Shown here piece by piece: positions 6,001 through 9,000 of a stretch of DNA of 23,523 nt. The stretch comes from a virus (Duplodnaviria > Heunggongvirae > Uroviricota > Caudoviricetes). The stretch lies in the IMG/VR virus record IMGVR_UViG_2703718820_000020, positions 1 to 23,523 of that record; one strand, given 5' to 3'. The stretch's first letter is position 1; each line of letters starts with the position of its first letter. Position numbers: made by a program.

Positions 6001-9000
6001 CTGGCAAAATCTATTGCAGAAATGGCGCTCGCGATTGAAGAGCCATTAACTCGTGTCCCTGCTTACGAATATCCGTTACTCTCCTGCGTACAGGCTGGCG
6101 CATTCACAATGGATGATATTTCGTACACCGCAAAGGATGCGATTAAATGGATCTCCACCACCACAAAAGCCAGTAACAAGTCGTTCTGGCTGGAAGTTAA
6201 GGGGCATTCAATGACCGCGCCACAGGGAGGTAAACCCAGCTTCCCTGAAGGTATGCTGATACTTGTTGACCCTGAACGGGAGATTGAGGATGGCGATTTT
6301 TGCGTGGCCCGAATGAACGGCGATGAATTCACCTTCAAACGATTCATTCGTGAGAGCGGTAAAGCGTACCTGGAGCCACTCAACCCACGATTCGAGATGA
6401 TTGAGTGTAACGAAAACTGCCAGTTTGTCGGAAAGGTCATCAAGTCGCAGTGGAATGATGAGACTTTTGATTGAACTCACAGGATGATATCAATAACCTT
6501 GCAAGGAGGTTATTTTATTTCCTTTTTCAGCGAAAAATCTCCGAGAACCCTCGCCCAATGCGGGCGGGGAGCAGTCGCAATCAAGTGAGCCATAAATGAA
6601 CAAAGACAAATCCTTGACACAACAAGTGGAAGAAATACTTAGCAAGCAAAAAGTTAGCGAGCAAGGAAAAATGATTCAATCATTAAAGAACATGGGCTTG
6701 ATCAACAAGCCTGTTTTTACTTTGGCTTATGGACCAGATATTACAACCTGCCAAATGCACCAATAACAAAACCCGGCCTTGGTGCCGGGTTTTGTTTGCC
6801 TCCTGCTCGCCCCACCATTTACCAGTGCGCCGTAAATTCCCCATTCTTCGGCGGTGAGGATGTCAAAGACGAAGGGAACATTAAGCCCCTGTGTGATGGT
6901 TGACTTCTTTTTCCAGCGCCTTATTAACAAAGGCGTTCAGTGATAAATCTTCTTCCATCGCCATTTCAGCGACCCGACGATGCAGTTCTGGATCAAGTCT
7001 GACGTTAAACACACCTTTAAACGGGGTATCAGGCTCCTTTCCATCCTCCACACAAGACTGCAAATACAGCTCAACCGATGTCTTAAACTCCTGTTCCAGT
7101 TCAGCTAATGTAGAAGCCTCATAAGTTACCAGGTCTCGAATAAACGCCAGTTTTCCGTACAGGATATTATTTTCAAAATCTGGTTCTACTGTACCTAAAT
7201 ATCCTTTATATTTTAGATGCTTCATAATACCCCAGCCTCTTTCAGATTCTGTTTAATCGCTTTCAGCGTTCCACCTTTAATATAACTTTCTGGATGTGGG
7301 CGATGCATTAATATGGTGTGGTTGATTTCAGCATTGAAAAACCGCACTCTTGAGCCCTGCATTTCCTTTTTGACATATCCCAGAGAGGAAAACAAAACGA
7401 CCAGCTCATCCCATTCAAACGTTTTTTTACTGTTTAAAAACTTTTCCAGTAGCTTATCTGCTTTCCCCATACCCACATAATCTCATCTTCGCTACATTGC
7501 AACTAATTATAGTTACAGGCAGTGTTTTTGTCAAAAGCCACCAAGCCCGCTGGGTTCTCTTTGACTGTTCGCTGCTTTTCTTCGTGTTATCAGGGGGCTT
7601 TTCCCTCACGCCAAATCTCACATAGAGTAACCGGCCCGCGCCGGTTTTTCTTTGACCGCACTCCGCTAACCGCCCCCTTGAAAAATAAATCACTTTAAAA
7701 ATCAGTTAAGTAATATTTTTTCACCCTCAATAACCACTAACGGTATTTACATAAAAATCACCGCAAGTTATATTTCTTTCAAGCCAGAAACATCGAGCCC
7801 TTACACAGGGCTACATAAATCAGTCGTACGGCGCGACTTAACCCGCCGCAAAATGCTCTTTAACAATCTGGAGCTTTACAGCGTCAATGACCTGTTTAGA
7901 CCCCTACACGTAAACGTGCTGTATCATCGGGTGCGATCCGGTCGATGAGAGAGTATCCCCGCGCGAGAGCGAGAACGGCGTGAGAACGGGCAACACTGGC
8001 AGGAAGTTGGCGCTGACCAATACAGGGAATGTTTTGGGGTGCAGGCGGCACCGCCAAAGCGTTTCTGAGAAAGGACGGTATTGACTGCGTGTGATGTCGG
8101 GGCTATATTTGGCGAACACCTTATAAAACGGGTGTCGGGATTCTCACCCCGCTGACAATCGAGGCGATACAGACGCGCCAGCGTCTTTTTTTGTATCAAC
8201 ATACACGCACATCTTATCAATGGTGGGCTGTATGGGGCCGACTTCGGTCGGGCTGGTTCCCTTGATTGCCAGTTGTGAGAACCCTGTACAGTCCACCGCC
8301 AGCGAGCTTCTCACCTCCAGCGGTGGTTATCAATCACCAATCAAGGAGGCTGCCATCATGGCTACTATCTCTCCCCTTTCTCGCCCATCCGTAACTATTG
8401 AAAACAGCAATGCCATCACTACGTCAATTGACATCGCAGAGTTCTTTGAGAAGCAACATCACCATGTTGTTCAGAAAATAGAATCCCTCGAATGCTCTGA
8501 GCAATTCTTAACCCGCAACTTTTCGCGGGTTAAATTTGAACACCGAGGCAATACCTATAACGCCTATCAAATCACCAAAAACGGATTCGTCTTCCTGGTG
8601 ATGGGATTCACTGGTAAAAAAGCCGCCGCTTTCAAAGAAGCCTACATTGCTGAATTCGATCGCATGGAAAAACAACTATGGGAACAGAAACAACTGGCCC
8701 TGTCTTCTCCTGCGATGAATATCAATTTTCCTTTATCGTGGTTTTCAGAGCATCACCCCTACGCCACGATAAACTATGTTGATCGCAAGGTTATCAGCCT
8801 TGATGCTTCCGTGCTCTTTGATATGCCAAGCCCAACTATGCGCATCCTCAACGAGCTACACAGCAAAGGCTATAACGTTGACGCCGCTGTCGCCGAATTT
8901 AACGCCTTCAAGCATCTGACGGAAGAAATGCGCCGTAAATTGCTGGACATTTCCCGCACATCGGAAAAGTCTTCCCGCTTTGGTTTCAACGTAAATCTTT

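Follow-up and report, generated by a model that had tools for sequence, protein, structure and literature searches.

A probable plasmid-type HicA^O^B toxin–antitoxin cassette, reversed in the cargo slot next to the repressor gene in a P13374-like E. coli prophage

In phage lambda, the place directly after the repressor gene is taken by the exclusion genes rexAB. The occurrence of a toxin–antitoxin pair at the same place in an E. coli prophage raises the question of whether such a pair guards its carrier or merely travels with it. The window, that is, the whole stretch of 23,523 nucleotides analysed here (positions 1 to 23,523 of the IMG/VR virus record IMGVR_UViG_2703718820_000020, Caudoviricetes), contains a pair of this kind. 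An initial annotation had described it as a toxin-first hicA/hicB pair with a 4-nt overlap, lying on the strand opposite to cI, driven by a textbook TTGACA-17-TATAAT promoter and occupying the position of lambda rexAB. These points are borne out: the hicB start and the hicA stop overlap in the ATGA at 7222–7225, both products exceed their Pfam cut-offs, both genes are read from the minus strand directly after a plus-strand repressor gene of the S24/HTH type (5761–6474), and the promoter agrees with the consensus at all 12 positions. Taken together, it is very likely that the locus is a complete, selection-maintained type II HicA^O^B cassette inserted in reverse orientation into the cargo slot of a P13374-like E. 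coli prophage.

The hicA toxin gene (7222..7470, minus strand) encodes 82 amino acids counted from an ATG, a start that fits the N-terminal MGK of all HicA homologues compared; the hicB antitoxin gene (6881..7225, minus strand) encodes 114. The hicA product matches the Pfam family HicA_toxin (PF07927) with 45 bits against a gathering cut-off of 27, covering profile positions 1–58 of 58, and the hicB product matches HicB (PF05534) with 71 bits against a cut-off of 21. Full-length PHROGs matches are found to phrog_8887 ('toxin') for HicA and to phrog_9151 ('HicB-like antitoxin') for HicB; no NCBIfam model was reached at its cut-off by either protein. Since single-sequence searches of the PDB gave no matches for HicA and marginal ones for HicB, and a profile search with HicA arrived at an E value of just about 0.3 to the HicA structures 4c26 and 6g26, a comparison of folds was needed. 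The AF2 model of HicA (pLDDT 90) consists of a helix (residues 20–29), three strands (33–36, 41–46 and 51–56) and a second helix (66–79), which is the dsRBD-like alpha-beta-beta-beta-alpha fold. Its best Foldseek matches, 1whz, 6g26_E/F and 4c26, are all HicA proteins, with a probability of 1.0 and a TM score of 0.65–0.68 (normalised by target length) for 1whz and 6g26_E/F. In the HicB model (pLDDT 91.7), an N-terminal HicB fold is followed by a C-terminal ribbon-helix-helix DNA-binding domain. Foldseek places 6g26_A/B (HicB), 4p78_A (HicB3) and 2dsy on top at probability 1.0, the N-terminal domain fits 6g1c with an rmsd of 1.7 Å, and residues 73–111 weakly match the CopG-type ribbon-helix-helix protein 9kkd. 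The best PDB matches of the two models come from the HicAB systems of B. pseudomallei, Y. pestis and T. thermophilus. The HicA and HicB folds on which the initial annotation had staked its assignment are thus found by profile as well as by structure. Identical proteins named HicA and HicB already exist in RefSeq for E. coli prophages (WP_000513533.1 in the case of HicA), and H. influenzae HicB is 62% identical to HicB of the window. The dN/dS values are 0.01–0.07 for hicA and for hicB, the mark of purifying selection. Two plus-strand open reading frames, 6900–7124 and 7313–7480, were rejected as genes because they run antisense inside hicB and hicA, whose coding sequences are conserved.

The toxin departs from the studied members of its family at one position. 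In these, a catalytic histidine stands at the start of the second beta-strand, namely His24 in B. pseudomallei, His28 in Y. pestis and His24 in N. gonorrhoeae. This histidine and its GSH motif are absent from HicA of the window, where the motif reads G39-S40-R41 and Arg41 aligns with His24 of the B. pseudomallei protein (4c26). The window's HicA belongs to a long-form clade distinguished by an extra N-terminal helix (residues 3–13), and among the cluster representatives of this clade column 41 is arginine in 127 of 144 and histidine in a single one. H56 and H59 are near-invariant in the clade and form part of a conserved H56-R-P-H59-P motif, with His56 at the end of the third strand. Judged by these alignments, the missing canonical histidine is a trait of the whole clade and not decay of the window's copy, and membership of the HicA family stands by profile and fold despite Arg41. 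In all HicA proteins that have been mutated to date, toxicity depends on the canonical residue (PMC11594946, PMC12297915). With arginine in its place, the RNase chemistry of this HicA is an assumption, and a histidine-dependent chemistry cannot be presumed; Arg41 together with the cross-strand His56 may represent a relocated catalytic residue and confer a different RNA specificity.

The cassette has a close twin on conjugative plasmids. Across 6865–7536 it shares 90.4–90.8% DNA identity with IncX4 plasmids, and 79 of 82 HicA residues and 110 of 115 HicB residues (96%) are identical to the IncX4 proteins. Some IncI2 plasmids carry the same kind of module. Homology to the plasmids is confined to this interval, which opens with the −35 hexamer and closes 16 nt beyond the hicB stop codon; the flanks on either side (6818–6864 and 7537–7580) are common only to other prophage copies. 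In all, 743 plasmids contain the cassette, most of them found in E. coli and Salmonella. The features by which Lin et al. 2025 define the HicA^O^B subfamily, overlapping reading frames, no intergenic G/C-rich terminator and an IncX4-like sequence, are all found here. An internal hicA terminator is described for the HicA^T^B type of IncI2 plasmids (PMC11878559); no terminator-like site of that kind was found inside the window's hicAB operon. In the IncX4 HicA^O^B system, HicA is toxic, HicB neutralises it completely (PMC11878559, Lin et al. 2025), and hicA and hicB mRNA levels are similar (PMC11878559), although the link of the tested plasmid, p14EC007a, to the 96%-identical proteins is one of replicon type and overlapping-ORF architecture.

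The hicAB promoter, TTGACA-17-TATAAT at 7506..7534 on the minus strand, is the sole exact match to the sigma-70 consensus in the 23.5-kb window, and none arose in 100 shuffles. Its hexamers do not vary among prophage, IncX4 and IncI2 copies; a Klebsiella plasmid copy has TACAAT. An imperfect 20-bp palindrome, TGTAACTATAATTAGTTGCA (7498..7517), spans the −10 hexamer together with the site where transcription is expected to start. It occurs once in the window, is found unchanged in the IncX4 and IncI2 copies and has one base different in the KY204 prophage. Its core, TGCAACT-N5-7-AGTTGCA, is met again ahead of hicA in homologues that are 59%, 57%, 39% (two copies) and, in mEp234, 35% identical, so that the palindrome is kept from 96% down to 35% identity. 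Given this recurrence, the palindrome probably serves HicB as its operator, and the hicAB promoter is probably autorepressed. A perfect promoter does not equal high expression: the clade-conserved palindrome covers its −10 hexamer and start site, and for the IncX4 orthologue, hicA mRNA is not markedly higher than that of a chromosomal reference gene (PMC11878559).

The cI-type repressor gene (5761..6474, plus strand) encodes HTH and S24 peptidase domains (Pfam PF00717, PF01381) and shares 95% DNA identity with cI of the Stx2a phages P13374 and TL-2011c. It is followed by a variable cargo slot (6489..7630, from blastn breakpoints) that holds orf56, a bidirectional terminator and the reversed hicAB. 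The slot extends between the end of cI and a plus-strand terminator (7629..7653); homology to the phage backbone breaks exactly there and restarts, in P13374 and PhiR12_3, at 7631. In P13374, the same slot is filled by a methylase and a restriction endonuclease. The small open reading frame orf56 (6596..6766, plus strand like cI; 56 aa) matches phrog_28875 with an E value of 1e-30. It accompanies hicAB in every related viral contig, and in 11 IMG/VR contigs it lies beside hicAB at 98–100% identity. These 11 share the order cI-orf56-hicBA, although their cI genes fall into three or more alleles.

Three hairpins bear on where transcripts end in this slot. Between the convergent cI-orf56 and hicAB units lies a strong intrinsic terminator (6768..6797; -23.2 kcal/mol on the plus and -24.5 on the minus strand, z -3.8 and -4.9) that is bidirectional, as U-tracts follow it on both strands. 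Within the cassette, a weak terminator-like hairpin (6873..6890, minus strand) carries the hicB stop codon in its loop; its fold is not significant here (z -0.84) and is better formed in the plasmid copies. The third, 7629–7653, lies outside the cassette and is an intrinsic terminator of the phage backbone at the right edge of the slot. It has a U-tract only on the plus strand and its minus-strand fold is not significant (z -1.4), and was therefore rejected as an insulator, being able neither to end nor to shield the minus-strand hicAB transcript. It is comparable to Timm of lambda-type immunity regions, and in mEp234, whose slot has an analogous layout from the repressor gene to the closing terminator, Timm is annotated at the equivalent place. 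Hence, of the earlier description of the module as bracketed by terminators, the presence of both hairpins stands, but only the left one acts on the hicAB strand, and the term 'transcriptionally insulated' overstates the case, the right-hand hairpin being the terminator that closes the cI-cargo slot. Nor could a pL beside the module be demonstrated. Right of the slot, neither an N gene nor an N-sized reading frame was found, isrK and C4 RNAs and then a Rha-type gene appearing instead. A search for oL-type operators by 8-mer matches to the cI-cro intergenic region gave none right of the slot, no 14-mers are shared with that region there at up to two mismatches, and the AATGTCNACA repeat of the cI-cro region is absent there. 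The name pL is a label borrowed from lambda.

How the cassette would operate can be outlined from these elements and from its family. The consensus sigma-70 promoter would require no phage factor and, as family precedent suggests, would place hicA and hicB on a single mRNA, on which the ATGA overlap would couple their translation. The N-terminal domain of HicB would block the active site of HicA. A HicB dimer would set its ribbon-helix-helix domain on the TGTAACTATAATTAGTTGCA palindrome and so cover both the −10 hexamer and the start site, and binding there would keep a strong promoter low and self-limited in the lysogen, in which the pair is presumably expressed. If HicB were lost, titrated or not resupplied, HicA would arrest growth, presumably by RNA cleavage. 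The hicAB transcript would end at its own weak hairpin or at the 6768–6797 terminator, which would also end the converging cI-orf56 transcript.

As to what the pair does for its carrier, it is most likely a selfish addiction or competition module hitch-hiking in a cargo hotspot, with phage defence the less likely alternative. Support for an addiction role is thin: the plasmid-competition advantage conferred by IncX4 HicA^O^B is only 3:1 (PMC11878559), and a review, in its lines on the hicAB of the IncX4 plasmid pJIE143, gives a maintenance role as discarded (Bustamante & Iredell 2019, cited in PMC11594946). An abortive-infection or exclusion module, a counterpart of rexAB in which an infecting heterologous phage that stops host transcription or depletes HicB would set HicA free, so that growth would cease ahead of any progeny, is suggested by the location. 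The slot is a known cargo and defence hotspot: lambda keeps rexAB in it, the cI–N interval is a common moron site (PMC7067206), and P13374, with the same cI and cro, bears its restriction-modification pair here. A Panacea-domain pair adjoins hicAB in the KY204 prophage, and a link to immunity has been drawn for a HicAB associated with Cas13a (PMC13448076). However, PADLOC-DB v2 contains no family that matches HicA, HicB or orf56 at E <= 1, deletion of hicAB from plasmid p45 left resistance to lytic coliphages unchanged (PMC11878559), and HicAB2 of the P. putida prophage P1 is a potent toxin–antitoxin pair that provides no defence (PMC12894663) and likewise leaves prophage stability unaffected (PMC12894663). 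For the HicAB of Adephagia, no targeted phage was found (PMC11594946). An exclusion function accordingly appears unlikely, and abortive infection or prophage stabilisation by the window's pair, the roles first suggested for it, is conjecture.

Two further explanations turn on the proteins themselves. Since HicB of the prophage and its operator differ very little from their counterparts on IncX4 and IncI2 plasmids, mutual neutralisation has to be considered, in which each HicB would neutralise the HicA of the other carrier and thereby alter retention, as cross-talk or anti-addiction. The extent of identity of both proteins, the invariant palindrome in prophage and plasmid copies and the spread of the cassette over so many E. 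coli and Salmonella plasmids speak for this proposal; against it, it is extrapolated purely from these likenesses, and the plasmid module has weak addiction and competition effects (PMC11878559). We hold it to be possible, if doubtful. The same tentative standing applies to its wider version, a single cross-reacting system that would include mcr-1-type plasmids and co-repression of promoters, perhaps with the relocated catalytic residue (Arg41/His56) in addition. That loss of the catalytic histidine has instead left a non-toxic HicA, and the pair a remnant or a mere DNA-binding regulator, might be read from the alignment of Arg41 with a residue on which every tested HicA depends. This is very improbable in view of the prevalence of arginine across the clade alongside near-invariant H56 and H59, the low dN/dS of hicA and the reported toxicity of IncX4 HicA, which carries the same motif (PMC11878559). 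An intact addiction or competition cassette thus remains the preferred reading.

One toxin–antitoxin cassette, delimited exactly by its −35 hexamer and its terminator, travels between conjugative resistance plasmids and the slot beside the repressor gene in E. coli prophages of Shiga-toxin-producing strains. The palindrome offers a testable candidate operator for this HicB clade, and the HicA clade lacks the catalytic histidine that underlies all mechanistic work on HicA. If cross-neutralisation were true, lysogens would be immune to plasmid addiction and competition, and prophage loss would be selected against less strongly in cells that carry the plasmid, with a bearing on the persistence of mcr-1 plasmids in lysogens. 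Otherwise, the module had been recognised correctly and had its annotation already. The practical value is modest; the pair, its plasmid twin and its placement were known, and the finding is solid but ordinary.

Among known systems, lambda rexAB resembles the window's hicAB in lying directly downstream of cI inside the immunity region and in its presumed expression in the lysogen. There is no homology between them, however; rexAB is read together with cI from pRM, whereas hicAB is convergent and has its own promoter, and rexAB acts by membrane depolarisation while hicAB would, by family, encode an RNase-type toxin. With the studied HicAB systems (B. pseudomallei 6G26/4C26, Y. pestis HicA3B3 4P78, E. 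coli K-12, S. pneumoniae and N. gonorrhoeae), the module shares the toxin-first operon of the structurally characterised examples, and its HicB has the N-terminal HicB domain plus ribbon-helix-helix of the Burkholderia and Yersinia proteins. It differs from them in the extra N-terminal helix of HicA, in Arg41 for the catalytic histidine, in the new near-invariant His56 and in the lack of a sequence-level PDB match with the single HicA sequence. A search of 50,697 phage DNA records with the cassette gave no matches, even in distant mode, and mEp234 and HK106 were found by protein search only. In the lambda-immunity phages mEp234, HK106 and mEp506 (EF120460, NC_019768; Degnan et al. 2007), hicA-hicB-orf lies between cI and the early-left region with pL, belongs to the same long-form clade and replaces rexAB, and phages of this type share the TGCAACT...AGTTGCA palindrome upstream of hicA. 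Their proteins are only distantly related (35% identity for HicA, 42% for HicB), hicAB lies on the same strand as cI rather than on the opposite one, HicB is longer (152 instead of 114 aa) and followed by a third ORF, and oL, pL, nutL and N are annotated, none of which is recognisable in the window. The HicA^O^B module of IncX4 plasmids (pJIE143, p14EC007a) is a far closer counterpart. Its carrier is a conjugative plasmid instead of a prophage cargo slot, the hicA ribosome-binding site of the window appears weaker than in the plasmid copies, and the cassette's own terminator is degraded in the window, where termination has passed to the bidirectional hairpin 84 nt further on. In toxin-first order, 4-nt overlap, lack of an internal terminator, TTGACA-17-TATAAT promoter, 20-bp palindrome and a hairpin across the hicB stop, the plasmid and prophage modules are the same.

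The toxin-first hicA/hicB pair proposed in the initial annotation is borne out at the level of both genes and products. An 82-aa ORF, hicA (7222-7470, minus strand), precedes a 114-aa ORF, hicB (6881-7225, minus strand), and the two share 4 nt, the ATGA at 7222-7225 supplying both the hicB ATG and the hicA TGA. The hicA start is assigned to the ATG at which all homologues begin with MGK; an upstream GTG would give 84 aa. In Pfam, the products match HicA_toxin (45 bits, cut-off 27) and HicB PF05534 (71 bits, cut-off 21), and both belong over their full length to PHROGs families, phrog_8887 "toxin" and phrog_9151 "HicB-like antitoxin". 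Single-sequence searches of solved structures with HicA and HicB returned no useful match; a HicA profile from 18 homologues gave only a weak alignment with the B. pseudomallei protein. The expected folds do appear in confident AlphaFold models based on alignments of homologues, and the refuting outcome named in the initial annotation, proteins lacking HicA/HicB folds, is not what was seen. The HicA model (pLDDT 90) has as its best PDB matches 1whz, 6g26_E/F, and 4c26—all HicA—with match probabilities of 1.0 for 1whz and 6g26_E and 0.99 and 0.85 for the other two, and TM-scores normalised to target length of 0.58-0.68 (0.65-0.68 for the three crystal chains); an additional N-terminal helix (residues 3-13) lies ahead of the alpha-beta-beta-beta-alpha core. 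The HicB model (pLDDT 91.7) best matches 6g26_A/B (HicB), 4p78_A (Y. pestis HicB3), and 2dsy; it has a ribbon-helix-helix region after the N-terminal HicB domain. Neighbouring genes encode a cI-type repressor (5761-6474, plus strand; HTH and S24 peptidase) and a lambda-type Cro (5462-5665, minus strand). Given the ORFs, the family matches, a promoter unique in the window, and these neighbours, the observation is real rather than a chance pattern, and it is well supported that hicAB constitutes an intact, self-contained toxin-antitoxin cassette gained horizontally into a repressor-adjacent cargo slot.

Lambdoid prophages of E. coli FHI_NMBU_10 and JNEC-KY176 contain the 891 bases around hicAB at 100% identity, and in several further strains, among them some named as Shiga-toxin producers (STEC), the identity is 98-99%; the prophage proteins are already called HicA/HicB family toxin and antitoxin by the NCBI pipeline (WP_000513533.1, WP_000681611.1). 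Three places on the JNEC-KY176 chromosome (L024, NZ_AP045172.1) match the 891-bp query, and this strain may carry several prophages with a common cassette or flanks. Plasmids with an 89-91%-identical cassette—about 400 from E. coli in RefSeq, 743 in PLSDB—are IncX4 plasmids of 30-35 kb and some IncI2 plasmids of 60 kb. Their homology is limited to window positions 6865-7536, a stretch that begins exactly at the -35 hexamer and ends 16 nt beyond the hicB stop. Prophage and IncX4 proteins are identical at 79/82 positions in HicA and 110/115 in HicB, and dN/dS against four other copies is 0.01-0.07 for hicA and hicB alike, indicating strong purifying selection on toxin and antitoxin. The IncX4 module has been described by Lin et al. 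2025 as "HicA^O^B", having overlapping ORFs without an internal terminator; toxicity of its HicA in E. coli K-12 is reported, with full neutralisation by HicB (PMC11878559).

The putative toxin deviates from characterized relatives in its active site. The histidine of the GSH motif, at the start of beta-2, is essential in every HicA mutated (PMC11594946, PMC12297915). Here the motif reads G39-S40-R41, R41 falling opposite B. pseudomallei HicA position 24 in the alignment. An exhaustive HicA profile search yielded 1,520 cluster representatives with E-values of 1e-3 or lower; among the 144 aligned of the best 150, 127 have Arg and one has His at position 41, 139 have His56, and 142 have His59. 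Across the long-form HicA clade, GSR replaces the catalytic GSH and an H-[RK]-P-H-P motif is near-invariant. Since the IncX4 HicA with the same motif is reported to be toxic, GSR is taken to be a clade-wide feature and not decay of the window's copy. In the model, beta-2 (41-46) and beta-3 (51-56) form a hairpin, which would make residue 56 a cross-strand neighbour of residue 41; relocation of the catalytic histidine to His56 is a reasonable guess. All mechanistic work on HicA depends on a histidine that the long-form clade lacks.

The perfect consensus promoter noted earlier stands: TTGACA-17-TATAAT (7534..7506, minus strand) matches at 12/12 positions, is the sole exact match in the window, and occurs in none of 100 dinucleotide-preserving shuffles. 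An imperfect 20-bp palindrome, TGTAACTATAATTAGTTGCA (7498-7517), lies over both the -10 hexamer and the predicted start of transcription. This 20-mer occurs once in the window, and is the same in the IncX4 and IncI2 copies; the JNEC-KY204 prophage departs from it at one base and a Klebsiella plasmid at three. Its core, TGCAACT-N5-7-AGTTGCA, also lies 5' of hicA in homologues of 59%, 57%, 39% (two copies), and 35% (mEp234) identity. From sequence conservation, we infer a candidate operator for HicB's ribbon-helix-helix domain, by which the consensus promoter would be autorepressed. Autorepression is usual in type II modules. It would also fit the unremarkable hicA mRNA level of the IncX4 copy, which is similar to that of hicB and, unlike in the IncI2 type, not markedly above the purA reference (PMC11878559).

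The module would be expressed constitutively but weakly in the lysogen, HicA presumably acting as an RNase and HicB both blocking HicA and repressing the hicAB promoter. Among possible roles, selfish addiction or competition is ranked first; the advantage conferred by IncX4 hicAB in plasmid competition is only 3:1 after 80 generations (PMC11878559). Abortive infection and prophage stabilisation, as initially proposed, are legitimate hypotheses against which current precedents weigh: hicAB has no PADLOC match, deletion of hicAB from plasmid p45 left lytic-coliphage resistance unchanged (PMC11878559), the functional HicAB2 pair of P. putida prophage P1 affects neither prophage stability nor defence (PMC12894663), and no phage was found as a target of Adephagia HicAB (PMC11594946). 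A specific alternative, suggested by sequence likeness, is that the prophage module might engage in cross-talk with the near-identical plasmid modules.

The proposal that hicAB is bracketed and insulated by terminators holds on one side. A strong bidirectional terminator (6768-6797; -23.2 kcal/mol on the plus and -24.5 on the minus strand, with U-tracts on both) separates the converging hicAB and cI-orf56 units, orf56 being a 56-aa ORF on the cI strand (6596-6766). A second minus-strand hairpin (6873-6890), whose loop contains the hicB stop codon, is weak in the window and well formed in plasmid copies. The right-hand hairpin (7629-7653) provides no shield: it carries a U-tract on the plus strand only, and the minus-strand fold is not significant (z -1.4). 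Lying at the exact point where backbone homology resumes and resembling Timm of mEp234, it is best read as a backbone terminator closing the repressor-cargo operon, outside the hicAB cassette. The "pL" placed beside hicAB could not be verified: right of the slot, promoter-like sites are present (7746-7774, 8081-8109), but the window has no N-sized ORF there and no operator in common with the cI-cro intergenic region. A direct repeat in the latter (5666-5760), AAATGTC[C/A]ACA at positions 5680 and 5710, is absent right of the slot, so the left-operator arrangement is unlike that of lambda or lies elsewhere. Where lambda has N, the plus strand instead carries isrK (8116-8191; Rfam, 58.7 bits), with the 8081-8109 site and a terminator-like site (8171-8186) around it, and a C4 antisense RNA (8216-8303; Rfam, 77.1 bits), closely followed by a Rha/Ash-type regulator ORF (8359-9002). 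The interval 8116-9002 resembles an antirepressor control region of the P1 immI or Gifsy-1 IsrK type. A further Rfam match, sRNA-Xcc1 (18163-18252, plus strand; 65.4 bits, gathering score 53), falls in the early-left gene block.

In blastn comparisons with phages sharing cI and cro (95% DNA identity), backbone homology ends at 6488, 14 nt past cI, and restarts at 7631. In Stx2a phage P13374, the intervening slot is occupied by genes for a DNA methylase and restriction endonuclease, on the cI strand; in PhiR12_3, by a small ORF that carries the annotation "type II restriction enzyme BsuBI"; and in a JNEC-KY204 prophage with different repressor and Cro, by the same hicAB (93% identity, 6818-7580) plus a Panacea-domain pair. 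Some IMG/VR contigs have an extra 303-aa ORF between cI and orf56, and the corresponding interval of strain 2015C-3121 is annotated in RefSeq with an "SDH family Clp fold serine proteinase". In these phages, the interval after cI is a hotspot for cargo. Loci cited with the slot comparison are L007 5090-7610, L004 3763-5656, and L014 4878-6220. The order cI, orf56, terminator, reversed hicB-hicA recurs in 11 IMG/VR viral contigs whose repressors are 100/97%, 74%, and 69% identical to that of the window, so the cassette moves among immunity types. In all 11, orf56—matching phrog_28875, a family of unknown function, and resembling, below threshold, the N-terminal DNA-binding domain of ArgR—adjoins hicAB at 98-100% identity despite the differing repressor alleles, and may therefore travel with the cassette.

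In place of lambda O and P, the replication module (2078-4559, minus strand) has a DEAD/DEAH helicase and a primase-like DUF7146 protein, a combination shared with P13374 and TL-2011c. Accessory loci, rexAB among them, commonly sit in the interval between repressor and N (Owen et al., PMC7067206, citing Degnan et al. 2007). The finding of hicAB is correct in substance and ordinary: the pair was already annotated, its closest relative is characterized, and its repressor-adjacent placement has been seen before. Between cI and oL/pL, the lambda-immunity phages mEp234, HK106, and mEp506 have a hicA-hicB-orf segment—annotated within the "immunity region" of GenBank EF120460—with a pair that shares 35% (HicA) and 42% (HicB) identity with that of the window and falls in the same long-form clade.
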